A DNA stretch of 64,000 nucleotides from assembly GCA_949493535.1 (NCBI GenBank), contig CASZWJ010000001.1, forward strand, positions 140,850 to 204,849, in the 5' to 3' direction. The notes under the pieces are model-generated. The model ran no database searches. It was not told the origin of the DNA and was given only the letters and a program-made list of their open reading frames with translations. Of this stretch, positions 5,584-57,847 are shown piece by piece. This stretch comes from an uncultured Alphaproteobacteria bacterium (GTDB lineage Bacteria; Pseudomonadota; Alphaproteobacteria; RF32; CAG-239). Position 1 is the stretch's first letter; each line of letters opens with the position of its first letter. A program made the translations under genes and the position numbers.

Positions 5584-6861
5584 GTGATGTTAAAAAAGTG
5601 GTGGCAGTCCGCAGAAATATATTTTGACCGCCGGATGTTGACAATGGTCGGTCTGGGTTTTTCCAGCGGATTTCCTTTTTTGCTGGTCAGCGGCACTTTG
5701 GCACTTTGGCTGACCGAGTCCGGAATCGGTCTGGAAATGATAGGCCTGTTTTCTTTGGTTAAAACGCCATATAGTTTTAAATGGCTGTGGTCGCCTGTTG
5801 TAGACCGAATCCGCCTGCCTTTTTTTGACCGGCTGGGGCGCCGCCGCGGCTGGGCATTTTTTTCGCAGCTTTTATTGCTTTCGGCAATTTTGGGAATGTC
5901 TTTGGTTAATCCCGCTCAAGCCGTGTATTTGTTGATGTTTCTTGCTTTTCTGACAGTTATCGCTTCGGCAACGCAGGATATTGCGCTGGACGCTTATCGT
6001 GTGGAAGCTTTTGACAATAAAGAACAGGCTGCCGGAACGGCAATTTTTATTTTGGGCTACCGGCTCGGGTCAATTTTTTCAGGTGCGGCGGCTTTGCTTT
6101 TGGCAACGGTTCTGAGTTGGCATGAAGTTTATGCTGTTATGGGCTTGGGTGCGGTTATCGGCATGGTAACAATCTTGAAATCCAGAGAACCAAAAAACTG
6201 CAAAGAATGCGGCGCGCCGTTTCAAGGCAGCCTGCTTGAACGTCTGTCCAACTTTTGGCGGACGGCGGTCAAAAGCCCGATTGCAGATTTTTTGAATCGC
6301 CCCGGCTGGTTTTGGGTCTTGTTGTTTATTATGATTTATAAGTTGTGCGATGCCTATATGGTGCCGATGACAATGCCTTTTTATGACGCAATGGGTTTCA
6401 GCAAAGAACAGATTGCTTTTGTGACGAAATTTTACGGTATGGCGGCGACAATCGGCGGCGGTATTCTGGGCGGCATTATCGTCAACCGCTGGGGAATCGT
6501 GAAGAGCTTATATCTGGGCGGCATTTTGCAGGGGCTGACGACTTTGATGTATGTGGCTCAGGCGTATTCCGGCAACAATATATATGTGTTAATGGGTACG
6601 GTTTCGTTGGATAATCTGGCCGGCGGCATGAGTACGACAGCTTTTGTGGCTTATATTTCTTCTTTGTGCAATGTGGCTTATACCGCGACCCAATATGCGT
6701 TGCTTTCTTCCTTTATGTCTTTGGCACGCGATTTGCTGGCTTCGACTTCCGGCGCATTGGCTAAAGCCGTCGGGTGGAGCAATTTTTTCATTATTACAAC
6801 CCTAATGGCGATACCGGGGATATTGCTTCTTGTTTATCTTCAACGCCGCTATAGAATTTAG
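5584..6861 (+). CDS. ampG: AmpG-family MFS muropeptide permease
   Basis: 425 aa, about 12 TM segments. The N-terminal region (LGFSSGFPFLLVSGTLALWL...KWLWSPVVDR) is typical of the AmpG/PAT family. Confidence 0.7.
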   Translation: MMLKKWWQSAEIYFDRRMLTMVGLGFSSGFPFLLVSGTLALWLTESGIGLEMIGLFSLVKTPYSFKWLWSPVVDRIRLPFFDRLGRRRGWAFFSQLLLLSAILGMSLVNPAQAVYLLMFLAFLTVIASATQDIALDAYRVEAFDNKEQAAGTAIFILGYRLGSIFSGAAALLLATVLSWHEVYAVMGLGAVIGMVTILKSREPKNCKECGAPFQGSLLERLSNFWRTAVKSPIADFLNRPGWFWVLLFIMIYKLCDAYMVPMTMPFYDAMGFSKEQIAFVTKFYGMAATIGGGILGGIIVNRWGIVKSLYLGGILQGLTTLMYVAQAYSGNNIYVLMGTVSLDNLAGGMSTTAFVAYISSLCNVAYTATQYALLSSFMSLARDLLASTSGALAKAVGWSNFFIITTLMAIPGILLLVYLQRRYRI

Positions 6862-6888
6862 GGGCTTGACTATATACTTTTCATGCTA

Positions 6889-6938
6889 GGGATTTTTTCG
6901 TTCATGTACCGGTTTTGTACACATCTCTCAAAAATCCC
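6889..6938 (+). repeat. GTAC-core hairpin element (copy G)
   Basis: Outer stem GGGATTTTT (6889-6897) pairs with AAAAATCCC (6930-6938), enclosing CATGTACcggttttGTACAC (6903-6922). Located in the 3' region of ampG. Confidence 0.6.
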
Positions 6939-6985
6939 GTCGCAGCAAAAGCATCTATTCAAGCCAAGGAAGGATAGAGGTTTTT

Positions 6986-12822: not shown

Positions 12823-12907
12823 AGAAAACCCGTCTGGCGGGTATACGGGGCGTTTTGGCGGTGTCGTTTTCTTGAGTGTCTCTTGTATACTCTGAGGTTG
12901 CGCTTCT

Positions 12908-12923
12908 GAAATCACTCTATATC
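12908..12923 (+). repeat. solo right-arm of the dispersed element (copy F)
   Basis: GAAATCACTCTATATC matches the right terminal repeat of copies A/B/C. No convincing left arm is seen. Confidence 0.4.
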
Positions 12924-13108
12924 TCATGTTATTCGAGTTTTTCTAATCGGTTCATATATATTTGAAATGTTTTAAGTGAGAATTTATGAAAATAGTTAAG
13001 CTTATTTCTTAGCGGATTGTTTTTTTATTTCTATAAGATATAAAAAATGCTGGATTTTTAAAAAGTTTTCTGTTATATCTCTTTACAGAATTGATAATAT
13101 TAGATGAG

Positions 13109-15867: not shown

Positions 15868-18336
15868 ATGACAGAAGATAATGCAAAAAATAAATTAACA
15901 TTATCAGGAAAATCTACCCTGACGCTGAAATTGGGCGATAAAGCCAAATCGGTAAATAACGAGGGTAAAAAAGTTGTTCAGGTTGAGGTTCGCAAAAAGA
16001 GAATTATCAATCCCTCAACCGTCGGTTCGGAGCCGAAAGTTAAAATTGATGACGCAACGGCGGCAAAGCTTCGTTTGATTGCCGAAGCCAAAGAGCATGA
16101 GGCCAGACGCCGTCAGGAAGAGGAAGAAAAAGCCATTGCCCGCCAGAAACAGCAGGAAGAAGACAAACGCCGCCAGGAAGAAGAAGCAAAAGCCTTAGCT
16201 GCCGCTAAAGAAGCCGAAGAAGCAGCACGTGCCGCCGCGGCTAAACAGAATGCCAAAAAAGACGATTTTGCAGAAGCTTCGGCTGAAGACAGATCCTTTA
16301 AGGCAAAAGAAAAGAAATCTAAAGATTTTGATGATGACGATGATGAAAATGTTTATCACAAGAAAACAGTTGTTTCTCGTGACGATTCATTTGAACAAGA
16401 TCGTAAAAAGGTGACCAAACGCAGTTTTGAGCCGCAAAAACGCAATGGCGGAAAATTTAGCGTTCATAATATTATGGGCGATGATGATGACGACGATTAC
16501 GGGTTCGGCGGACGCAGACGTTATAAGAAAAAACAGCCGAAACAGCAGCCGGTTCAACAGCAGCCTCAGGAAAAAATCATTCGCGAGGTTATTGTTCCCG
16601 AAGTTATTACCGTTCAGGAACTGGCTAACCGTATGGCTGAAAAAAGCGCCGATGTTATCAAAAAATTGATGGCTTTGGGCGTGATGGCGACCATTAATCA
16701 GCCGATTGACGCTGATACGGCTCAGATTGTGGTTGAAGAATTGGGGCACAAGGTTAAACGTGTGGCTGACAGCGACGTCGAGCTGGGTTTGGAAGGCAAA
16801 GAAGACCAGCCGGAGGACTTGTTGCCGCGTGCGCCGGTCGTGACCGTTATGGGACACGTCGACCATGGTAAAACTTCTTTGCTTGACGCTTTGCGCGAAA
16901 CTAACGTTGTTGCCCGCGAGGCCGGTGGTATTACCCAGCATATCGGTGCTTATCAGATTACGGTTCCGACCGGTGATAAGATTACGTTTATTGATACGCC
17001 GGGTCACGAAGCTTTTTCAGAGATGCGCGCCCGCGGTGCCAAAGTAACGGATATTGTGGTTTTGGTTGTGGCCGCCAATGACGGTATCATGCCGCAAACG
17101 ATTGAAGCTATCCGCCATGCTCAGGCAGCGGAAGTTCCGATTGTGGTGGCAATTAACAAAATCGATTTGCCCGGTGCTGATCCTATGAAAGTCAAAACAG
17201 CTTTGTTGCAACATGGAATTGCCGTTGAAGAAATGGGCGGCGATAGTTTATGTGCCGAGGTTTCTGCCAAAAAGCGCATGAATATTGACAAGTTGGTCGA
17301 AGCTATATTGTTGCAGGCCGAGATTTTGGATTTGAAAGCTAATCCCAACCGCAAAGCAGAGGGTGCCGTTGTTGAGGCCAAAATGGAAAAAGGCCGCGGT
17401 TCCGTTGCTACCGTTTTGGTTCAGAGGGGCAATCTGAAAATCGGCGATATTATCATCGCCGGCAAGGAATGGGGACGTGTCCGCGCGATGTTTAACGAAC
17501 ACGGCAAGAAAATTTTTGAGGCAGGTCCGGCTACGCCGGTTGAGGTTCTCGGTTTGCAGGGCACGCCTGCTGCCGGTGATGATTTCATTGTTGTTGCCGA
17601 TGAGACTCAGGCCAAGCAGGTTACCAATTACCGTATTTGTAAAGAGCGTGATGCCAAGATTGTTAAATCGGCAAAATCAGCTATGGAACAGATGCTTGAT
17701 AAAATTAAATCAGGCGAATCCAAGCACCTGCCGATTATTATCAAAGCCGATGTTCAAGGTTCGGTCGAGGCTTTGGAAGGAACTCTTAACAAGCTGTCTA
17801 CGAGTGAGGTTGATGTTCAGATTTTGCATTCTGCCGTCGGTCCGATTTCCGAATCTGATATTTCTCTGGCAAAAGCTTCCAACGCGTTGATTATCGGTTT
17901 TAATGTCCGTGCCATTCCGCAAGCCCGCGATGCGGCTCGCCGTGACGGTATTGAAATTAAATATTACTCAATTATCTATGATGTTGCCGATGACGTGAAG
18001 AAAGGTTTGGAAGGCATGCTTTCTCCCGAACTGAAAGAAAAACTGCTCGGATATGCCGAAATTCGCGAAGTATATAATATTACCGGCGTTGGCAAAGTTG
18101 CCGGCTGTATGATTACCGAAGGTATTGTCCGCCGCGGAGCAAAAGTCCGCCTGCTGCGTGATAACGTCGTTATTCATGACGGTTCGTTAGGACAGCTCAA
18201 ACGTTTCAAAGAAGACGTTAAAGAAGTCCGTGAGGGTTATGAATGCGGTATGAGTTTTGAAAACTACAACGACATTCAAAAAGGCGACTTTATTGAGTGT
18301 TATGAGATTGAGGAAATTGCCGCAAAACTTTCATAA
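15868..18336 (+). CDS. infB: translation initiation factor IF-2
   Basis: 822 aa. GTPase motifs [17 protein letters not shown]. The N-terminal region is Lys/Glu/Ala-rich with poly-Asp tracts. Confidence 0.95.
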
Positions 18337-18360
18337 CGGCCAACTAATACAGATTTTGCG

Positions 18361-18410
18361 GGTTGAAAGTGTCCTCTCGTACTTTTATGTACGCTCCGGT
18401 ACTTTCACCC
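18361..18410 (+). repeat. GTAC-core hairpin element, subfamily 2 (copy D')
   Basis: Outer stem GGTTGAAAGTG pairs with TACTTTCACCC, enclosing CGTACttttatGTACG. The inner stem differs from copy E by a compensatory T-A to C-G change. Confidence 0.55.
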
Positions 18411-18458
18411 TGAAATCTTATTATTTATTTCGTTCTGAAAATTTTGCATGCAAGTTCG

Positions 18459-18511
18459 TCTAGCGGTTTTCTGAGCGATTTTACGGTGATGATAAAAATC
18501 ACTCTATAAAT
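18459..18511 (+). repeat. collapsed copy of the element (terminal arms only, copy D)
   Basis: TCTAGCGGTTTTC + CTGAGCGATTTTAC sits directly next to AAAATCACTCTATAAAT. The central GTAC core is missing, so the left and right arms alone form a hairpin. Confidence 0.5.
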
Positions 18512-18562
18512 TCCACTATCCAAACTTTCATAGTTTGGCTCTAATGTAAAAGGTAAAAGAAT

Positions 18563-19069: not shown

Positions 19070-20020
19070 ATGGCTAACAAAAATGAAAAGCGTGAGGTTT
19101 ATGTCTGCAAAAATGATGAGGGAAACCGCAGCGTATTTGTTTATCAAAACGGTGAACGCTATTTCGGGCGTCTTTGCCGAATTTCTGATAACAGTGTAAT
19201 TCTTGAGTGGAATTTTGATGCTTATTTCTGTTTGGATAATTATTTTCTTTATCTGACAGGGGACAATTGGTTCTGCTTTAAGTTAGAACCGGAAGCACGT
19301 ACCGTTTATTTAGGACGCCGGTTGGCTGAAACGTTCTACGTTCATGAAAATGAAGCGGGTATGGTGCATTATGCTTATTTCGACTATGACGGAGATTATT
19401 GTTTGTTGGAGAGCAATGCTTTGCGGGTGGAAAAGGGCTATCATCGCGGTTCAAATGAAGAATGTATCCTGGTATTTGAAAAAGTAAAATTCTGCAAAGT
19501 CTTTTATTTGGCTCCCTGGGGTAATTGGATTGATCCTGTTCACTTCTTTTCTTTTATGAATGAGTGTAGCGGATATTTTTCTGTTGAAGCCGGAGAGCAG
19601 AATACACTTTATGGGCTTTTCTATGACGAAAAAGACGAAGGTTATCATCTGCTTCACACGGGAAAAAATTTGAGTCTGTTTCGCAATGCTTTTGTAAATA
19701 AGGAAGGAGATAAGTTTAACCTTTATCTCTATGACGGAAAGGAGCTTGTTGCAGCGGAAGAAGGAAGCCGTTTCTTTCAGAATTCCGAAGGGCTTGTTCT
19801 TGATGACAAATTTTGGGCTTGCCGAGATGATATTTTGGATATGCTTAATCTGAATATGCTGGATGTGCCTGAAACCATTGCTGAACAGTTTGCAGGGGAT
19901 AAATCTGGAGATGCCGTCTCTGTTGTTGACGAATCAGAGCCTTCTCCGGAACCTCGGCCAAAAATCGGATTTTTCCGCAGATTGCGCCGTTGGTTGGATT
20001 TTGGAAAACGAAGCCGGTGA
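19070..20020 (+). CDS. hypothetical protein (316 aa, aromatic-rich)
   Basis: Long ORF with coding-like codon usage. I recognise no family. No obvious SD. Inserted between rbfA and pyrE/truB. Confidence 0.45.
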   Translation: MANKNEKREVYVCKNDEGNRSVFVYQNGERYFGRLCRISDNSVILEWNFDAYFCLDNYFLYLTGDNWFCFKLEPEARTVYLGRRLAETFYVHENEAGMVHYAYFDYDGDYCLLESNALRVEKGYHRGSNEECILVFEKVKFCKVFYLAPWGNWIDPVHFFSFMNECSGYFSVEAGEQNTLYGLFYDEKDEGYHLLHTGKNLSLFRNAFVNKEGDKFNLYLYDGKELVAAEEGSRFFQNSEGLVLDDKFWACRDDILDMLNLNMLDVPETIAEQFAGDKSGDAVSVVDESEPSPEPRPKIGFFRRLRRWLDFGKRSR

Positions 20021-20913: not shown

Positions 20914-20948
20914 CAGGTTAATCCTTACAAGATTAACCTGTTTTTTTA
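20914..20948 (+). terminator. rho-independent terminator after pyrE
   Basis: Perfect 10-bp stem CAGGTTAATC / GATTAACCTG followed by T7. Confidence 0.75.
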
Positions 20949-21002
20949 TTGACCTTCGGTTGTTTTTATCTATGCTGAAAGCAGTTGTTTAAGGAGGATG
21001 TA

Positions 21003-21941
21003 ATGGGGCGGCGGAAAAAAGGCAATAATGTCCATGGCTGGCTGGTGATTGATAAGCCCGGGGATATGGGGTCTACGGATGTTGTTAATCAGACGAGGCG
21101 GTTGTTTAATGCCAAGAAGAACGGGCATACCGGTACGCTTGACCCTTTTGCAACCGGCGTTTTGCCGATAGCATTCGGCGAAGCGACTAAGCTTATCCCG
21201 TTTGTGACTGACGGCGACAAAGAATATGAATTTGTCGTTCAATGGGGGGCTGCAACGGCCAGCGGCGATACGGAAAGCGAAGTTATTTCCCGCGCGGATA
21301 AAATTCCCTCTAAGGACGAAATTTTAGCGGTTATTCCCAAGTTTATCGGAGAAATCAAACAGGTTCCGCCGGCTTATTCCGCAATTAAAATCAACGGGCA
21401 GCGGGCTTATGATTTGGCGCGAAAAGGCGAAACCGTGGAAATTCCCGAGCGAATCGTAACAATTTATAATTTGGAGCTGCTTGAAGAGTTGCCGGAAAAT
21501 AGGGCAAAGTTTCGGGTTGCCTGTTCAAAAGGGACATATGTCCGCACTTTGGGGCAGGATTTAGCGCTGGCTTTGGGGACTTTGGGCTATTTGACCGAGC
21601 TGCGTCGGACGAAATGCGGTAAATTTTCGCTCGATGATACGATTTTGCTGGAAAATTTGAAAAATATGGTGCATATTGAGAACCTAAAAGAAGTTTTGCT
21701 TCCGGTAATAACTTCTCTGCGCGACATCGCGGAGCTAGCTGTAACCGAAGCAGATGTTGCCAAACTCCGGCAGGGGCAAGCCATTTCACCGAGATTATAT
21801 CAGGATCAAAACCTGAAAGAAGGTGTGGCTGTTGCTGTTTGTAACGGGGAGCTGGTGGCTGTTTTGCGAATCGAGGAGAAAAGGATTTCCCCTCAGCGCG
21901 TTTTTAATTTTAACGAAAATGCCGAAAATGGTTCGGTGTAA
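21003..21941 (+). CDS. truB: tRNA pseudouridine(55) synthase
   Basis: HGWLVIDKPGDMGSTDVV and the catalytic GTLDPFATGVL motif. ATG at 21003 is preceded by RBS AAGGAGGA; the ORF track begins at an upstream TTG. Confidence 0.88.
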   Translation: MGRRKKGNNVHGWLVIDKPGDMGSTDVVNQTRRLFNAKKNGHTGTLDPFATGVLPIAFGEATKLIPFVTDGDKEYEFVVQWGAATASGDTESEVISRADKIPSKDEILAVIPKFIGEIKQVPPAYSAIKINGQRAYDLARKGETVEIPERIVTIYNLELLEELPENRAKFRVACSKGTYVRTLGQDLALALGTLGYLTELRRTKCGKFSLDDTILLENLKNMVHIENLKEVLLPVITSLRDIAELAVTEADVAKLRQGQAISPRLYQDQNLKEGVAVAVCNGELVAVLRIEEKRISPQRVFNFNENAENGSV

Positions 21942-22231: not shown

Positions 22232-22253
22232 TCAGGGAATCGTTTTTATGCAG

Positions 22254-22345
22254 TATCTAGAGCGATTTTACGCCGTCTCAAAAAATTCATGTACCCAAAT
22301 GTACACTAAAATTTTTTTCGCGACTAGAAATCACTCTATCTATCA
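22254..22345 (+). repeat. full-length ~90-bp nested palindromic intergenic element (copy A)
   Basis: Left arm TCTAGAGCGATTTTA (22256-22270). Core hairpin AAAAAATT-c-aTGTAC-ccaaat-GTACAct-AATTTTTT (22280-22317). Right arm AAATCACTCTATCTAT (22328-22343), which is the inverted complement of the left arm with one mismatch. Confidence 0.7.
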
Positions 22346-22387
22346 GCTTAAAAACAATTCTGCTTGGTTAGAAGATAATTAAAGGGT

Positions 22388-22416
22388 GCGGGGCGCTGGC
22401 TCCGCTTTCCTTTTAT
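22388..22416 (+). terminator. possible rpsO terminator/attenuator
   Basis: GC-rich hairpin GCGGggcgctggctCCGC followed by TTTCCTTTT. Confidence 0.35.
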
Positions 22417-22457
22417 AAAAAAATCCTTGGTTTTCAAGGTGAGGAATATGGGCTTAG

Positions 22458-22499
22458 CTCTTAGGCAAGAGCATTGAAAAAGATGCTTTTTCCTAAGAG
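22458..22499 (+). promoter_or_regulatory. pnp leader hairpin (candidate RNase III autoregulatory site)
   Basis: CTCTTAGG-caag-AGCAT-tgaaaaag-ATGCT-tttt-CCTAAGAG. A long bipartite stem about 45 nt upstream of the pnp ATG, analogous in position to the E. coli pnp leader. Confidence 0.5.
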
Positions 22500-22541
22500 G
22501 TAAGTCCGGAAGATGTAAAAATGTTATAGAAAGGATATCGT

Positions 22542-24892: not shown

Positions 24893-25186
24893 ATGGAAAC
24901 GTTGACAGTTGTCTTGTTTTTGCTGTTCAGCGCTCTGGTTTGTGTTTTTCGTTTTTGGAGTGTTATTCGTAATGCAAAAAGAGTGAAACGCGAAAATGTT
25001 AAGCAAGAAGCCATTGTTTTGGCCCGAGTTAAAGAAAAAAGAGATTCCGTCTGGATTTGCAAGTTCTTTAGATTCGGCAACCATTATGGCTTTTTTCGCG
25101 GAAAACCGAAATCAGACCGCGTTGAAGCTGTTATTGTCGGTTATGACAAAGAAACCGATATGTATGAACTAAAAGAATTGTTCTGA
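24893..25186 (+). CDS. hypothetical small protein with N-terminal TM helix (97 aa)
   Basis: ORF with a hydrophobic N-terminus (LTVVLFLLFSALVCVF) and weak RBS. I recognise no family. Confidence 0.3.
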   Translation: METLTVVLFLLFSALVCVFRFWSVIRNAKRVKRENVKQEAIVLARVKEKRDSVWICKFFRFGNHYGFFRGKPKSDRVEAVIVGYDKETDMYELKELF

Positions 25187-25355: not shown

Positions 25356-25646
25356 ATGTCTGATATTACATTTAATGCAATGAAACGTGAGAAAGCAGGT
25401 AAGGGGGCAGCTCGTGCATGTCGTCGTGAGGGTCGTGTCCCTGCAGTTATTTATGGCGGCAACAAAGATGCCATTATGATCAGCCTTAACCCGGTTGAAC
25501 TCGAAAAAGCTTTGGATATGGTCGGCTTTTACGATGCTGATATTGAAATCGTTTTAGACGGCAAGAAACACAGCGTTGTTTGTCAGGATGTGCAGTTTCA
25601 TCCTGTGTCTGACGCGCCGATTCACGTCGACTTTTTAAGAAAATAA
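25356..25646 (+). CDS. rplY: 50S ribosomal protein L25 (short form)
   Basis: 96 aa. MSDITFNAMKREKAGKGAARACRREGRVPAVIYGG is the L25 signature. Confidence 0.85.
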   Translation: MSDITFNAMKREKAGKGAARACRREGRVPAVIYGGNKDAIMISLNPVELEKALDMVGFYDADIEIVLDGKKHSVVCQDVQFHPVSDAPIHVDFLRK

Positions 25647-25680
25647 GTCATATTTTGGCTTATTAATACGGAAATTGCGG

Positions 25681-25728
25681 GGAGAAAGTTTCCTCATGTA
25701 CGTTTATGTACACTCCGGTACTTTCTCC
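25681..25728 (+). repeat. GTAC-core hairpin element, subfamily 2 (copy E)
   Basis: GGAGAAAGT pairs with ACTTTCTCC (9 bp), enclosing CATGTAC-gtttat-GTACACT-ccgg-TAC. Three GTAC units sit at 10-bp phasing. Confidence 0.6.
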
Positions 25729-25821
25729 CTTATTTCTTATTACTAAGCTCAAACTCTGACTTATTTTCAGCGGCTTATTTTCAAATCCTGCGTGTCAGGG
25801 TTTTTTTGTAGAAAGTTAAAA

Positions 25822-27600: not shown

Positions 27601-27621
27601 ATAAAGTTTATCTAATGGGTA

Positions 27622-27708
27622 TTTAGAGCGATTTTACATTGTTTCAGAAAATCCATGTACTTCTTTGCACACTGGGATTTTCTTCGTAATTAGAAATCAC
27701 TCTATATC
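27622..27708 (+). repeat. full-length nested palindromic intergenic element (copy B)
   Basis: Left arm TTAGAGCGATTTTAC (27623-27637). Core GAAAATCC-aTGTAC-ttcttt-GCACAct-GGATTTTC (27647-27682). Right arm GAAATCACTCTATAT (27693-27707). Stem bases co-vary relative to copies A and C. Confidence 0.7.
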
Positions 27709-27750
27709 CCTCATTATCTAAACTTTAGATAAATTGTAAGGAATTTAAAA

Positions 27751-28250: not shown

Positions 28251-29612
28251 TTATCTTCCAGTGTCCCTTTGAGCTTTGAATGCGTCAATGCGGATTTTAC
28301 GTTCTGCATTTCTGTTTTGTTCAAAGGTTTTTTCATCAATGCCTTTTTCAGAAGCTTTCTTTTTTCTTATTTCAGCAACTTTAGCCTCATTGCGTTGTCT
28401 TCTTAAGGCGCTTTCGAGGTGGCGGGGTTGTTTCTTTAAGTCGTCTTCCTCAAGAGTTGTGCTTAATTTCACTCCTGATTCTAAAGCAGCAATGTTATAG
28501 TATGTTTGCATGTTTTTGTTGAACATGGTTACATCCATAACTTCATCCGGAGAATTGGTTTTATGGTCATTAATTTTTTCTCTGACGGCATTAAGCTCTT
28601 TTGCATCGTTTAATACAGCCTGAATTTGCGGGTCCGTGATGCCGTTGAGTTCTTCTGCTGTCGGAGCATTTTTTACCTTTATACCGGCCATTTGAGCGGC
28701 AGCAAAGTAAGTTGCTTTATCTTTTATGTCTGTATAGGCGCCCAAATCAAATTCTTCGCCCGGTTTGTCCATTTTGTGGTCAAGAGTGTCGCTCCATGCG
28801 TTAGCATAGCTGACAGGCTCTTTTTCTTCCGTTTTCGGGGCTTTGTCTGCTTCAGCCGTTTTTTCTTGATTTTCTGCGCCTTCGGATGCTTTTGTTTTAG
28901 CGTCGTTGACCATATCCTGAAGTTCTTTCGGCCATTGAGACATTTCTTCTTCAGTCGGGCCGTTTACGGGATTAGCGCCGTTTATGTAGCAAGCCGCCAG
29001 AAGTTTTGCTTTAAATTCAGGTGATTTTATATCGCCGAATTCAATGTCCGGACCGTTTTTCTTCATGGCAAGAGCAACGGTCTGTTCAAAATATTTGTTG
29101 TCAGGCGTATTGCCGTTGTAACCTTTTAAAGTGACATTATGCGGGCTTTTGTAGCTGATTTGGGCTGCATATTCGCCGTTATTTTTCTTATCTTTACTGT
29201 CATACAGGCGGATACAAACGTCATTTTCGGAGCCGGCTATATTTATATCTTCAAACTCTTTGTCGTTGTCTGTAGCCCATTGGCGCCATTCATTTTTGTA
29301 GTCTTCTTTCCAGTTGTCGTATACCGGTGTTTCGGCACCCTCAGATTCTTTGGATTCATGCGTATTTTCATTGCCGGGATTATCATGGTCGCTGATAGTC
29401 GTTCCCTGGTTTTCTTTATTATCAACATTGGCAGAACTGTCTTTTTTTTCAATTGAAAGATCTTCGATTTTGATCCTATCGACGATTTGGCTCAATTCTC
29501 CACCTTCTTTTATGGCGGCTTCAATGGCTTCTTTCAGTTTAGTGTCATCCCATTCTCTGCCATCAGGAAGTTTAAGTGCGCTTTTAACATCATCAAAAGA
29601 TATGTCAGCCAT
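28251..29612 (-). CDS. hypothetical acidic protein (453 aa)
   Basis: Long ORF, strongly acidic and K/E/D-rich (low complexity). No signal peptide. I recognise no domain. C-terminal basic coiled-coil-like tail. Confidence 0.5.
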   Translation of the reverse strand: MADISFDDVKSALKLPDGREWDDTKLKEAIEAAIKEGGELSQIVDRIKIEDLSIEKKDSSANVDNKENQGTTISDHDNPGNENTHESKESEGAETPVYDNWKEDYKNEWRQWATDNDKEFEDINIAGSENDVCIRLYDSKDKKNNGEYAAQISYKSPHNVTLKGYNGNTPDNKYFEQTVALAMKKNGPDIEFGDIKSPEFKAKLLAACYINGANPVNGPTEEEMSQWPKELQDMVNDAKTKASEGAENQEKTAEADKAPKTEEKEPVSYANAWSDTLDHKMDKPGEEFDLGAYTDIKDKATYFAAAQMAGIKVKNAPTAEELNGITDPQIQAVLNDAKELNAVREKINDHKTNSPDEVMDVTMFNKNMQTYYNIAALESGVKLSTTLEEDDLKKQPRHLESALRRQRNEAKVAEIRKKKASEKGIDEKTFEQNRNAERKIRIDAFKAQRDTGR

Positions 29613-38800: not shown

Positions 38801-40620
38801 TAATCGGCAATATCCGGTTTTTGGCGTTTGCGCTGCAACGGATCAAGAATCCGTTTGCGCAGACGCAGGCTTTTGGGTGTTACTTCCAAAAGTTCATCTG
38901 CTTGAATATAGGACAAGCCTTGTTCCAGAGATATTTTGCGCGGCGGAATCAAGTCAATGGCATCGTCTTTGCCGGCAGCGCGGATATTGGTCAGCTGTTT
39001 TGACTTGGTCGGGTTGACTTCCAAATCATTCGGTTTGGTGTGTTCGCCGATAATCATGCCGACATAAACCGGAGAGTTGTGTTCAATGAACATCGGGCCG
39101 CGGTCTTGCAGTTTCCATAAAGAATAAGCAATAGCCGTACCTGCTTCGGAAGAAATCAGAACACCGTTGCGGCGGCCTTCGATTTCACCTTTGAACGGCT
39201 GATATTCTTTAAAGCTGCGGTTCATGACACCGGTTCCTCTGGTGTCGGTTAAAAATTCGGAGTGGTAACCGATTAAACCGCGGGAAGGCGCATTGAAGAC
39301 CAAGCGGACTTTGTTGCCGATTTGCGACGGAATCATATCGAGCATTTCTGCGCGGCGAGAGCCGAGTTTTTCAACAACAGTACCGGAAAATTCTTCATCA
39401 ACGTCAACAACGACTTCTTCAACCGGTTCCAGCAGATTGCCGTTTTCGTCTTTGTGCATTAAAACGCGCGGGCGGGAAATTGAAAGTTCAAAACCTTCGC
39501 GGCGCATGGTTTCAATCAAAACGCCCAGTTGCAATTCGCCGCGTCCGGCGACTTCAAATGAATCCGAACTGTCGGTACGGGAGATTTTGAGGGCGATGTT
39601 GCCTTCGGCTTCTTTGCAAAGACGATCCCAAATCATACGGGAAGTAACTTTATCGCCTTCGCGTCCGGCCAAAGGAGAATCGTTAATTGAGAAGGTCATT
39701 GACAATGTCGGCGGGTCAATCGGCTGTGCCGGAATATGCTCGTTAACATCAAAAGCGCAGATTGTATCGGCAACGGTACCTTTAACAATACCGGCAACGG
39801 CAATGATGTCGCCGGCGTGCGCTTCTTCCAAAGCTTCGCGATTTAAGCCGCGGTATGCCAGAATCTTGCTGATGCGGACTCTTTCAAGCTCTTTGTTTTC
39901 GGCGTTCAAGACTTTGACCATGTCATTTACTTTGAGGCTACCGCTTTGAACTTTACCGGTCAACAGACGACCGATGAATTTGTCAGCTTCCAAAGTGGTG
40001 GCCAGCATTGAAAAAGGTTTGTCCGGCTGGCAGTTCGGTTTGGGAACATAAGAGCAAATCAGTTCAAACAACGGGCTTAAATCTTTTTTCTCGTCATTCA
40101 TGTCTTTAACGGCCCAGCCGTTGCGTCCGGAAGCATAAAGAACAGGGAAATCCAGCTGTTCGTCATTAGCATTCAAGCTGACAAACAAATCAAAAATTTC
40201 ATCAAGCACTTCATCGGCGCGGGCATCGGCTTTGTCAGCCTTGTTGATAACGACAATCGGTTTTAAGCCGAGTTTCAAAGCTTTTCCGGTAACGAACTTG
40301 GTTTGCGGCATCGGGCCTTCTGAAGCGTCAACCAGCAGAACAACGCCGTCGACCATAGATAAAATACGTTCGACTTCGCCGCCGAAATCAGCGTGTCCCG
40401 GTGTGTCTACAATGTTGATGTGGATGCCGTTCCAATTAACGGAAGTGCATTTTGACAGAATGGTAATGCCTCTTTCACGTTCCAAATCGTTGCTGTCCAT
40501 AACGCAGGTTTCAACCTTTTGGTTGTCACGGAACGTGCCGCTTTGTTTTAAAAGTCCGTCAACCATTGTGGTTTTGCCGTGGTCGACGTGGGCAATTATT
40601 GCAATATTCCTTAATTCCAT
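38800..40620 (-). CDS. typA: translational GTPase TypA/BipA
   Basis: MELRNIAIIAHVDHGKTT, DTPGHADF, NKAD. 606 aa. Confidence 0.92.
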   Translation of the reverse strand: MELRNIAIIAHVDHGKTTMVDGLLKQSGTFRDNQKVETCVMDSNDLERERGITILSKCTSVNWNGIHINIVDTPGHADFGGEVERILSMVDGVVLLVDASEGPMPQTKFVTGKALKLGLKPIVVINKADKADARADEVLDEIFDLFVSLNANDEQLDFPVLYASGRNGWAVKDMNDEKKDLSPLFELICSYVPKPNCQPDKPFSMLATTLEADKFIGRLLTGKVQSGSLKVNDMVKVLNAENKELERVRISKILAYRGLNREALEEAHAGDIIAVAGIVKGTVADTICAFDVNEHIPAQPIDPPTLSMTFSINDSPLAGREGDKVTSRMIWDRLCKEAEGNIALKISRTDSSDSFEVAGRGELQLGVLIETMRREGFELSISRPRVLMHKDENGNLLEPVEEVVVDVDEEFSGTVVEKLGSRRAEMLDMIPSQIGNKVRLVFNAPSRGLIGYHSEFLTDTRGTGVMNRSFKEYQPFKGEIEGRRNGVLISSEAGTAIAYSLWKLQDRGPMFIEHNSPVYVGMIIGEHTKPNDLEVNPTKSKQLTNIRAAGKDDAIDLIPPRKISLEQGLSYIQADELLEVTPKSLRLRKRILDPLQRKRQKPDIAD

Positions 40621-40657
40621 AATATTATTTCTTTCCTAAATGGTCGTCATGTCATGA

Positions 40658-40701
40658 TTTTGATAACCTCGTGTACTGTTTTGTACACGTCGGTATCAAA
40701 A
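40658..40701 (+). repeat. GTAC-core hairpin element (copy I)
   Basis: TTTTGATAAC pairs with GGTATCAAAA, enclosing the perfect palindrome CGTGTAC-tgtttt-GTACACG. Lies in the typA upstream region. Confidence 0.55.
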
Positions 40702-40842
40702 TTATTTCCAGCACAACCATTTATCAAAGAAATGGCGGCTTCATAAATCTGACATGAAATCTAAAATTCGTTCCTAACATACCAAGATAAAATTAAATTA
40801 CAAGAATTTAGTATAAAAATTTGTCGTTTTTTCTTTTACAGA

Positions 40843-46580: not shown

Positions 46581-46871
46581 ATGACTATTAAACCTCTTCA
46601 GGATCGTGTCCTGGTTAAAAGACTTGATGAAAACACCAAAACGGCCGGCGGCATTATTATTCCCGATACAGCAAAAGAGAAGCCGAGCGAAGGCATTGTT
46701 GAAGCCGTCGGTTCGGGAATGGTTACTCCTGAAGGAAAAGTTATTCCGATGAGCGTTAAGGTCGGCGACAAGGTTTTATTCGGCAAATGGTCCGGTACGG
46801 AAATCAAAGTCAATGGTGAAGACCGTTTAATCATTAAAGAGCCCGAAATCCTCGCAATAATCTCCGAATAA
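46581..46871 (+). CDS. groES: co-chaperonin GroES
   Basis: [35 protein letters not shown]. 96 aa. Confidence 0.95.
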
Positions 46872-46875
46872 TGAG

Positions 46876-46965
46876 CATCTAGAGCGATTTATCGTCGGTT
46901 CGAAAAATTCATGTACTTCTATGTACACTAAAATTTTTCTCACCCCTTAAATCACTCTATCTATC
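46876..46965 (+). repeat. full-length nested palindromic intergenic element (copy C) in the groES-groEL spacer
   Basis: Left arm TCTAGAGCGATTTA (46877-90). Core GAAAAATT-ca-TGTAC-ttctat-GTACA-ct-AATTTTTC (46901-38). Right arm AAATCACTCTATCTAT (46948-63). About 90% identical to copy A. Confidence 0.7.
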
Positions 46966-47024
46966 TCATTCTGCGAAGATTAGAAACGTGAAAGTTTTTT
47001 TTAGATAAAATGGAAAGGAATTAA

Positions 47025-56759: not shown

Positions 56760-56849
56760 GGAGAGATGGCAGAGTGGTCGAATGCGATTGACTCGAAATC
56801 AGTTGTACTCGTGAGGGTACCCAGGGTTCGAATCCCTGTCTCTCCGCCA
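56760..56849 (+). tRNA. tRNA-Ser (anticodon CGA)
   Basis: 90 nt. Acceptor GGAGAGA / TCTCTCC, anticodon stem ATTGA / TCAGT with loop CTCGAAA, long variable arm, T-arm CAGGG-TTCGAAT-CCCTG, discriminator G and encoded CCA. Confidence 0.85.
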
Positions 56850-56854
56850 TTAAT

Positions 56855-56886
56855 AAAAAACCCCGTCATGTACGGGGCTTTTTATT
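56855..56886 (+). terminator. rho-independent terminator after tRNA-Ser
   Basis: CCCCGT-catgta-ACGGGG followed by CTTTTTATT. Confidence 0.7.
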
Positions 56887-56997
56887 AATGATGAGGGGAG
56901 CTTGATTTGAACCCTGGGAAAAGGGTTCGACAGCAAGCGAGAGCGAGACGGAAGTATCGCGGTCGGCTTTGCCGATGAGCGAAGATGCGGCGAAGCC

Positions 56998-57016
56998 AAT
57001 CCCTGTCTCTCCGCCA
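56998..57016 (+). repeat. 19-bp direct repeat of the tRNA-Ser 3' end (att-like) with duplicated downstream context
   Basis: AATCCCTGTCTCTCCGCCA is identical to 56831-56849. It is followed by a second diverged hairpin (GAAGCCCC.../...GGGTGCTTC) and TTATTGATGAGG, mirroring the sequence after the tRNA. Confidence 0.6.
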
Positions 57017-57180
57017 ATAACAAAAGAAGCCCCATAAGGGTGCTTCTTTTGTTATTGATGAGGTTAAATTCCGGAGAAAGGGCGGCTACAAACAGCAGGT
57101 TGCCGAAAGTCTGCCGGCGGCGTGTACGGCAAGCCGTGCAGTGGTGTTGCCGCCTATCTCTTTCTTTCGCCATTTTGATT

Positions 57181-57259: not shown

Positions 57260-57847
57260 TTATCGTTTTAAAAACCGGTGGAGAGTTGACAGGTTAACAT
57301 GGAGATCGTGGGCAATTTTAATTTTCGGTATTTGGTTTGCAATCATGTTTTTTATGATGTTTTCTTTACCCTGCAATTTTGTGGTTTTATTTTTGCTGCC
57401 TTTAGGGCGGCCGATGCTTTTTCCCTCATTGCGCAGGCGTAATAAAGCTTCTTTGGTTCGCGCCGAGATAAGGTTTCTTTCAATTTCGGCACTTAAGCCA
57501 AAGGCAAATGCCAAAACTTTTGACTGGATATCCGCTCCGAGTTTGTAGTTTTCTTTGACAGTCCAGACCTGACAGCCTTGTTCCAGACAGTGGTGCAGGA
57601 TACTCATGATTTGCATCAGGTTTCGGCCTAAGCGTGACAGTTCAGAGGTTATTAAAATGTCATCGGATTTAAGGTTTTTTAATATCTTACCGAGTTTTCT
57701 TTTGTTCAGTTCTTTTGTGGACGATATTGTTTCGATAATCCAGTGATTGATTTTAAGATTATGCAGATTTGCAAATTTTGTTATTTCGAATTTTTGGTTT
57801 TCAGTATTTTGTTTGTCGGTACTTATTCTGATGTAACTATAAATCAT
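57260..57847 (-). CDS. small serine recombinase (resolvase/invertase family)
   Basis: MIYSYIRISTDKQNTENQ (catalytic Ser region), 195 aa, C-terminal HTH IAHDLHVNLSTLHRFLK. SD AAGGAT 8 nt upstream. Confidence 0.85.
   Translation of the reverse strand: MIYSYIRISTDKQNTENQKFEITKFANLHNLKINHWIIETISSTKELNKRKLGKILKNLKSDDILITSELSRLGRNLMQIMSILHHCLEQGCQVWTVKENYKLGADIQSKVLAFAFGLSAEIERNLISARTKEALLRLRNEGKSIGRPKGSKNKTTKLQGKENIIKNMIANQIPKIKIAHDLHVNLSTLHRFLKR

Follow-up and report, generated by a model that had tools for sequence, protein, structure and literature searches.

The 48 bases at positions 25681-25728 of the window analyzed here, a 64,000-nt stretch of DNA from an uncultured Rhodospirillales-like alphaproteobacterium, are the tip of a hairpin-forming repeat of about 130 nt, which we call copy E. 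Positions are those of the window throughout, unless a number beginning with L, which denotes a related locus, is given. Relatives of Ca. Scatocola among the uncultured Alphaproteobacteria of gut and rumen carry such repeats, and in the stems of the repeats it is the fold, not the sequence, that is kept by compensatory change. The best reading is that they are a new family of ~130-nt non-coding, palindromic hairpin repeats of 3' untranslated regions (3'UTRs), resembling miniature inverted-repeat transposable elements (MITEs) of the ERIC, Correia/NEMIS and RUP class. Small repeats of bacteria are commonly regarded as selfish DNA in decay. The hundreds of old, diverged copies described here have retained a stem of 60 bp together with its mismatches, and they offer natural material in which to ask how such hairpins are constrained.

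The sequence of 25681-25728 (GGAGAAAGTTTCCTCATGTACGTTTATGTACACTCCGGTACTTTCTCC, plus strand) comprises the inner stem, which is variable (GGAGAAAGT/ACTTTCTCC), as well as an internal loop and the core hairpin, in which TGTAC (25697-25701) and GTACA (25708-25712) enclose the loop GTTTAT. A third GTAC lies at 25718-25721, and we confirmed an earlier remark that copies E and D' each carry three GTAC units at 10-nt spacing. The window contains 7 instances of the pattern GTAC-N6-GTAC, where 0.07 would be expected; in all 100 shuffles the count stayed below 7. A looser pattern with loops of 6-7 nt and one GCAC variant gave 8 sites (1585, 6906, 18379, 22291, 25698, 27657, 40673 and 46913). Every core was the center, or apex, of an imperfect palindrome of 120-135 nt. 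When the 137 nt around copy E (25636-25772) were folded as RNA, a single hairpin was obtained with a minimum free energy (MFE) of -52.9 kcal/mol (z = -9.4); copies A and I folded in the same way, and the elements overall ranged from -31 to -53 kcal/mol, with z from -4 to -9. At 120-135 nt, non-coding and present in 8 copies in 64 kb, they have the character of a small dispersed intergenic repeat, and because the whole element is an imperfect palindrome, it forms one long stem-loop with terminal inverted repeats.

The copies belong to three families that have only the apex in common, namely t1 (copies A, B and C), t2 (D' and E) and t3 (G, H and I). The common apex reads YCR-YGTAC-loop(6-9)-GTACR-C, and the length of the core loop varies from 5 to 9 nt across copies. 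A preliminary description of this DNA, made from the letters alone, had pointed to a T-A to C-G change in the inner stem, TGTAC/GTACA against CGTAC/GTACG in copy D' (18378-18393). The change is present and the covariation holds across 200 distinct copies. The outer stems quoted there were likewise all found and do pair, save for one mismatch or bulge each in D' and I. Its placing of copy G in the opposite orientation was wrong, as the family profile matches G (6852-6972) on the plus strand like all others.

The larger set of copies was collected from two sources. With the window PNPase as query, we retrieved 80 syntenic loci from uncultured gut and rumen Alphaproteobacteria, whose hosts include Ca. 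Scatocola and metagenome-assembled genomes (MAGs) labeled 'uncultured Azospirillum sp.'; together with the window, of which 21 kb is 100% identical to a JGI metagenome contig, these species loci make up a genome-locus set of 81 sequences. The genome loci are pieces of ~20 kb, about 1% of each genome. Profile searches placed 101 copies in 28 of the 81, namely in the window and in 27 genome loci, and scanning metagenomes for the pattern added 119 loci in 83 dereplicated clusters with 168 copies. Among all copies collected (~270), 200 sequences are distinct. No Rfam covariance model matched any element at the gathering score or at E up to 5, the plasmid collection held no similar sequence, and the phage collection gave a single chance match of 30 nt inside an unrelated phage gene. 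A literature search found no description of these hairpin elements.

We then asked how the stems vary, using shuffles and slid partners as covariation controls; these statistics ignore kinship among copies. For 30 t2 copies, RNAalifold predicted 40 pairs, of which 34 had compensatory (double) changes. In the t2 alignment A1, pair columns 58-72/98-111 and 76-80/89-93 correspond to the inner stem and core of copy E. Cells were paired in 93.6% of cases, compared with 66.9% after shuffling and 38-50% with slid partners, and the covariation score was 0.698 against 0.205 (shuffled) and at most 0.19 (slid partners). Double changes filled 316 cells against 97 in the shuffled alignments, so that the excess of compensatory changes in a larger copy set, chosen beforehand as the point on which the claim of selection on structure should turn, is there. 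None of 500 shuffles reached the observed covariation values. Compensated changes were also seen in 16 of 25 pairs of t1 and in 20 of 23 pairs of t3. Among the 200 distinct copies, the outer core pair is T-A in 81, C-G in 77, T.G in 8 and C.A in 2 (Fisher p about 1e-35, uncorrected for relatedness), and the innermost core pair is C-G in 150, G-C in 9 and T-A in 5. The orthologue of D' in L007, TGTAC/GTACG, is one such T.G intermediate. Even the GTAC letters covary, to GTAG..CTAC or GTAT..ATAC, and therefore it is the pairing that is conserved, not the letters.

Paralogs of the same family lying more than 1 kb apart in one genome have a median identity of 0.63 (maximum 0.86), which indicates that the pairing was kept through long divergence. 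In strain-level orthologues, paired columns vary less than unpaired ones (26 of 890 vs. 21 of 403 columns variable), and the single changes interconvert Watson-Crick pairs with G.U in 14 cases and with A.C in 5, with 7 others. A fixed set of pyrimidine-pyrimidine mismatches and bulges is also retained across diverged copies. Taken together, the compensatory excess over controls in t1, t2 and t3 and the orientation bias described below support selection on structure.

The second regularity concerns the position of the elements relative to genes. All copies are intergenic. The upstream gene was co-oriented with the element (E) in 85 cases, with the arrangements +E+ in 55, +E- in 21 and +E? in 9, and was not co-oriented in 5 cases (3 of them spurious open reading frames (ORFs) within an array); -E- contexts number 2. 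Thus, between genes of the same direction, 55 elements are sense and 2 antisense, and orientation relative to transcription, which the preliminary description had singled out for checking in a larger set, is non-random. Divergent regions held copies in 0 of 74 cases (genome loci) and 1 of 51 (metagenome loci). The first element of an array starts -14 to +7 nt from the stop codon, and the stop lies within the A-run of the element or is a TAA or TAG encoded by the element itself (97 non-redundant cases). Element-encoded stops occur in the motif TATAAYGG in 10 cases, D' among them, and in CTAATAC in 4; for t2, the ORF closes at an element-encoded stop in 16 of 69 cases. In all, stops next to elements are TAA in 73 cases, TAG in 22 and TGA in 2 (TAA/TAG 95/97), and the TGA share of 2% compares with 22.8% among other genes in the same loci (p = 5e-8). 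In the window, copy E begins within the last codons and the TAA stop (25644-25646) of the L25 gene, the infB frame stops at the own TAA of the D' element (18334-18336) within a CATAACGG motif, the groES stop TAA (46869-46871) is inside the left end of copy C, and the TAG stop of the gene upstream of copy G is at 6859-6861.

Terminator hairpins were found downstream of 23 of 110 element ends and of 141 of 668 other gene ends (21% vs. 21%). A terminator-like hairpin with a T-run follows just downstream of E (25783-25803, plus strand), which places E inside the 3'UTR, and copy A is likewise trailed by a terminator-like hairpin (22388-22405). With a stop codon on one side and a terminator at the background rate on the other, the elements are neither terminators nor replacements for them. 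Beginning at the stop, in the sense orientation and upstream of the terminator or the next gene, they should be transcribed into the 3'UTR. Copies also lie at the operon junctions rpsO-pnp, groES-groEL and infB-rbfA.

The strand of the elements also agrees with the direction of replication. GC skew is positive across the whole window, and the element strand had the sign of the GC skew for 100 of 101 copies of the genome loci. In the independent, genome-wide metagenome sample, 69 of 73 copies followed the skew sign where it was clear, and 5 more lay at near-zero skew. Convergent regions held 40 copies after the leading-strand gene vs. 2 after the lagging-strand gene. Copies were present between leading-strand gene pairs in 41 of 296 regions of the genome loci and 24 of 161 of the metagenome loci, and between two lagging-strand genes in 3 of 105 and 1 of 65, respectively. 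These rare copies mostly have the leading orientation, antisense to the genes, as does window copy I, which is on the leading strand yet antisense to both neighbors. A rule based on sense 3'UTR RNA alone does not fit, nor does one based on the replication strand alone; the two constraints seem to operate together.

Each family has its own architecture outside the apex. In t1 (window copies A, B and C) it is ..ATCTAGAGCGATTTTACG..AAAAATTCA(core)CTAGAATTTTT..AAATCACTCTATCT... The left side of t2 (D' and E) reads AAAA-NNNYG-TATAATGG-N4-CTAATACAGAWWTGCGGG-variable-GTTTCCTCA(core) and its right side (core)CTCCGGTAC-variable'-CCCT-WWWTCTTATTA-N4-CTCATTCTCC-RNNN-TTTT. In t3 (G, H and I), whose core loop has 7-9 nt, GCAAAAGG-var-TCATGCTTG-var-CTCCTCG precedes the core and CGTCG-var-GCGCAGCA-var-CCTTTATCAAGC follows it. 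Elements end in (T)AAAA-NNNYG-TATAATGG... or ..ATCTAGAGCGATTT. An A-run and a T-run bound each long hairpin, often as T/AAAA...TTTT/A; among 38 copies, a T stands before the A-run in 26 and an A after the T-run in 23, with 18 copies having both. Chimeras were found, one with t2 outside and t1 inside (L017 14168) and one of the converse type (L026 11542). Arrays are head-to-tail on one strand (L022 9343-9833, L024 5554-5929 and L010 15677-16389) and often alternate families.

Comparison between species and strains revealed presence/absence polymorphism at orthologous sites. L017 has no element at the infB end, where L028 has one; L008 carries t1 after infB, and the window and L007 carry t2 plus an internally deleted t1 there. 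Depending on the species, t1, t2, t3 or a combination of them is found at the pnp end, at least six different elements in all, and the window has no element there. Between strains whose flanks are 100% identical, the number of tandem units was one vs. two. Across species and strains, copies have thus been acquired and lost, exchanged for others, duplicated in tandem and recombined. We saw no recent transposition bursts among the copies, near-identity being confined to local tandem copies, and recent copy gain seems to proceed by local duplication, not dispersal. Near-identical tandem duplicates that include flanking segments, with up to 98% identity, are found at L066 20042-20199 and L185 131-503. 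The spacer between the phosphoribosyltransferase gene and truB was replaced between strains (L002 4371-4513 vs. window 20947-21003), L002 being ~91 nt longer; this 91-nt difference proved to be no element insertion, only a variable spacer before truB.

How do these elements compare with known systems? For the features of the MITE class we relied on the review by Delihas, according to which bacterial MITEs are shorter than 200 bp and have terminal inverted repeats, TA termini and stem-loop transcripts, ERIC acts on flanking mRNA in an orientation-dependent manner, and RNase III cleaves NEMIS hairpins (PMC2229807). The likeness to ERIC/IRU (~127 bp) includes the size, the whole-element imperfect palindrome, the transcribed intergenic site in operons, the one long stem-loop and, in part of the present copies, the TA termini (PMC2229807). 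ERIC differs in showing no sequence similarity, in occurring in both orientations without a tie to stop codons, and in its gammaproteobacterial hosts; it is also one family, whereas the present elements have an apical module shared across several families. Correia/NEMIS elements are similar as small palindromes with TA ends (TA-like in the present elements), as co-transcribed hairpins, which in NEMIS are cleaved by RNase III, and in their size variants, chimeras and positions at gene ends (PMC2229807). They differ in that they have no strict orientation and are restricted to Neisseria, and the present host is an alphaproteobacterium; the 24-26 bp inverted repeat that defines Correia was not found here, as judged without alignment to its consensus. 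Correia elements hold GTAC-N5-GTAC, and the start of their inverted repeat, TATAGTGGATT, is like the t1 end ATAGAGTGATT, which we take as a lead only. The pneumococcal RUP (107 bp, using an IS630-family transposase at TA) is again non-coding, with terminal inverted repeats; its own target and termini are TA (PMC2229807). Its copies, however, are highly similar, reflecting recent mobility, and its partner IS is identified, whereas the dispersed copies here are ~63% identical.

REP/BIME-RAYT and IS200/IS605 systems recall the present elements by hairpin recognition, a conserved tetranucleotide beside a variable stem, arrays at gene 3' ends and a lagging-strand-template bias. REPs, however, are ~35 nt, carry a 5' GTAG-type tetranucleotide, flank a RAYT gene and alternate in orientation within arrays, whereas the present elements are ~130 nt and all head-to-tail; they do not conform to REP/BIMEs, and a genome-wide search for RAYT was not made. 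IS200/IS605 elements have two different subterminal hairpins and no terminal inverted repeats, unlike the single full-length palindrome with symmetric ends seen here. They insert 3' of a fixed tetra- or pentanucleotide, and the only regularity of the flanks here is TA(A/G); a lagging-strand-template orientation of their type is present but confounded with the transcription of leading-strand genes. Integron attC sites share the imperfect palindrome, the conservation of structure, extrahelical bases and strand over sequence, and the position between co-oriented genes; the present elements lack R''/L''-L'/R' boxes and an integrase context, and they lie beside core housekeeping genes instead of cassettes. 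A MITE is expected in either orientation, and the ratio of 55 sense to 2 antisense, with a strand that follows GC skew, departs from this. Their size, palindromic form, TA-like ends, co-transcribed position between genes and turnover group the elements with the bacterial MITEs; they are distinct in their near-absolute orientation, their abutment to TAA/TAG, their several families and chimeras with one apex, and their old, still paired copies.

We favor a joint mechanism, to which we assign a probability of roughly 0.6, in which a small mobile DNA, gaining entry at a TA, is transcribed along with genes as part of their 3'UTRs and is preserved as a hairpin of single-stranded nucleic acid, its apical GTAC stem-loop serving as the dock of a shared factor. 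The element would have spread by entering at a TA, for which a stop codon may have offered a harmless site, and would have persisted only at sites where the transcribed hairpin, in the orientation it had, was tolerated or useful. The single-stranded fold would be under continuing selection, and the invariant apical GTAC hairpin with its flanking internal loop would be the docking site for one shared trans-acting factor, for which candidates are nucleases, transposases and proteins that bind or process RNA. A specific recognition factor is indicated by an orientation that is nearly absolute, by the abutment to TAA/TAG and by the apex common to the families. By analogy with what is reported for ERIC in Yersinia and NEMIS in Neisseria, a 3'UTR stem-loop beside the stop most plausibly tunes the stability or processing of the mRNA 3' end. 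The elements lie in the 3'UTRs of infB, rpsO-pnp, L25-pth, ychF and groES-groEL, and therefore they may shape translation and chaperone expression; their hosts form an abundant, uncultured gut clade, and the elements are usable as strain-typing markers for these MAGs.

Several results weigh against this mechanism. No transposase or partner was seen among the called genes near the elements in the ~20-kb pieces of each genome, and TA at both ends was limited to the 18 of 38 copies given above. No high-identity pair of filled and empty sites resolves the junction so as to show a clean TA duplication. About 95-99% of copies are in one orientation, whereas classical DDE-mobilized MITEs insert both ways, and the near-absence of copies after lagging-strand genes, even in sense, is unpredicted by random insertion followed by an RNA filter. 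The antisense strand has a lower MFE by 4.3 kcal/mol on average in the nearest-neighbor model; it folds better because the mismatches of the sense strand are mostly pyrimidine-pyrimidine (C.T 745, T.T 215 and C.C 112 vs. A.G 104, A.A 96 and G.G 31, the last three amounting to 231 purine-purine mismatches). In an arm-to-arm alignment of 164 distinct copies, G.U (334) was hardly more frequent than A.C (312), and thus RNA is not indicated over single-stranded DNA as the selected form. The fixed mismatches fit either alike and do not discriminate. The asymmetry between G.U and A.C in the t2 consensus pairs (49 vs. 26) had looked like a pointer to the strand and was rejected in view of the overall counts.

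The elements could instead be host cis-acting RNA elements with mobility secondary, in which a dedicated RNA-binding protein or RNase III/E recognizes the apical GTAC stem-loop and sets mRNA decay, uncouples operon cistrons or stalls terminating ribosomes at the stop; E. coli REP sequences within ~15 nt of stops reportedly do the last. We regard this as somewhat doubtful. It is consistent with sense, stop-adjacent copies at ~100 independent gene ends, before terminators in the transcribed region and in operon junctions, with pairing long maintained despite 63% identity, with the preference for G.U among recent single changes, and with the different families found at the same site across species, as if some hairpin were needed there. 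Yet the same gene ends are free of elements in many related species, lagging-strand genes lack them, the sense strand has no advantage in folding energy or overall G.U, and no Rfam family matches. An element acting as a single-stranded DNA hairpin, moved or copied by a strand-specific enzyme on the lagging-strand template with transcription incidental, would account for the agreement with GC skew in both samples, the 40 vs. 2 copies in convergent regions, the essential absence of sense copies after lagging-strand genes, window copy 40619 (copy I), which is leading-strand but antisense to its genes, and a structure kept while the sequence varies. The enzyme might be an HUH/Y1 transposase of IS200/IS605 or RAYT type, or a reverse-transcriptase-based system using lagging-strand primers. 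Conserved asymmetric mismatches and a bulged C also resemble the strand-selection marks of hairpin recombination sites. We nevertheless consider it unlikely, given one 130-nt palindrome with TA-like ends in place of two subterminal hairpins or alternating 35-nt REPs, dispersed copies that are old with no evident recent transposition, and a strict abutment to stops of co-oriented genes that needs an extra target rule; nor was a Y1/HUH or reverse transcriptase gene seen in the sampled ~1% of each genome, where no search was aimed at the Y1 transposase. It is similarly improbable, though worth stating, that the whole is a strand-specific hairpin system and not a cut-and-paste MITE, with one enzyme recognizing the apical YGTAC-loop-GTACR on the lagging-strand template or the transcript and installing or copying the hairpin at TAA/TAG stops of leading-strand genes. 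If true, this would be a stop-codon-targeting, replication-oriented mobile hairpin with interchangeable outer modules, possibly domesticated as a 3'UTR control module.

Compensated changes could also arise without selection, if one arm of a quasi-palindrome is rewritten from the other by intramolecular template switching, a process known in E. coli and biased by replication strand. Copies B and C are separated by three adjacent compensated pairs, and whole stems were replaced between unchanged flanks, both in keeping with such switching. But switching perfects palindromes, and here the same pyrimidine mismatches and bulges are conserved on one strand across hundreds of copies; since these mismatches are fixed, passive homogenization is disfavored, and the slower evolution of paired columns and the T.G intermediates (8 vs. 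2 for C.A) argue the same way, so that we judge this artefact quite improbable. Least probable of all, in our estimate, is that the elements are intrinsic bidirectional terminators, as the A-run and T-run flanking the stem might suggest, or that the core is a duplex palindromic operator for a dimeric DNA-binding protein, as suggested by the operator-like symmetry of TGTAC-N6-GTACA. The stem beside the T-run is short, a basal 4-6 bp before an interruption, ordinary terminators follow at the background rate, and copies lie inside rpsO-pnp and obligatory operons such as groES-groEL; for the same background rate we rejected the elements as substitutes for terminators. A 60-bp covarying stem, loops of 5-9 nt and GTAG/CTAC variants are unexpected of an operator, and divergent promoter regions are nearly empty. 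A related proposal takes the outer stems for remnants of terminator hairpins whose loops received element insertions, which would explain outer stems that are shared while the interiors are swapped; the outer stems, however, form a limited, element-like set (AAAA-NNYG / CRNN-TTTT), and every unit of an array has its own.

In the window, all elements are on the plus strand. Copy E is a complete t2 element forming one long imperfect hairpin (25639-25768; nhmmer 25641-25766, E=3e-29) and is 80% identical over 86 nt to D', the t2 element with core CGTAC/GTACG (18322-18447). Beyond D' is a t1 remnant with its center, including the core, deleted (18465-18531; repeat families D19/D20), and an intact t1 occupies the same site in L008 (7804-7929). 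The other t1 elements are copy A between rpsO and pnp (22235-22361; inner stem AAAAAATT/AATTTTTT), copy B after ychF (27607-27724; inner stem GAAAATCC/GGATTTTC), whose core is damaged (GCACA), and copy C between groES and groEL (46861-46981); the compensated pairs that separate B and C are in the inner stem. The t3 elements are copy H (1531-1638), with a 7-nt loop, a partly degenerate right arm and a convergent gene context, copy G (6852-6972), with the stem GGGATTTTT/AAAAATCCC, and copy I (40619-40741), the sole window copy between two minus-strand genes. A decayed right half of a t1-like element (..GAAATCACTCTATATCTCATGTTATTCGAGTTTTTC) lies at 12880-12945 (repeat family D3).

Directly after the T-run of E there is a conserved box, (A)CAGCGGCT(T), at 25769-25782. 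The same box follows the T-runs of t2 elements next to unrelated genes at L018 ~2585, L021 ~6510 and L022 ~19995, and it may be an extra module or the start of another element type. In the rpsO-pnp spacer of L007 (9700-9830) and L008, a 120-nt hairpin (-43 kcal/mol, z -3.5) without the GTAC core occupies the same site as window copy A and has only the outer stem in common with it, a hint that this clade has more families of hairpin repeats that lack the core. The pnp leader also contains a conserved hairpin, CTCTTAGGCAAG..TTTTTGCCTAAGAG, at 22430-22530 and at the equivalent positions of L007 and L008, downstream of the rpsO terminator; in E. coli, the pnp leader hairpin processed by RNase III has a similar position.

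Of the 75 GTAC sites in the window, 17 fall in the 8 elements, which occupy 1.5% of it. GTAC as a restriction-avoidance signal was rejected, its observed/expected ratio being 1.23 (Markov-2 model). Other palindromic tetranucleotides are depleted over the whole window (GATC 0.29, CTAG 0.36 and GGCC 0.47), a composition that suggests restriction-modification pressure. A minus-strand gene at 28251-29612 encodes a 453-aa acidic low-complexity protein with no Pfam match that is conserved in all strain contigs, and ORFs of 316 aa (19070-20020) and 97 aa (24893-25186) have no family assignment. Immediately after the tRNA-Ser(CGA) gene (56760-56849), its 3' part recurs in inverted form with 77% complementarity (arms 56820-56866 and 56872-56918), and a minus-strand match to the Rfam family 'Plastid-psbl-rps4' merely reads this tRNA in antisense. 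Beyond the repeat there are two small minus-strand ORFs (56850-57173 and 57260-57847), and the inverted copy could mark where an element integrated, as its scar or its attachment site.

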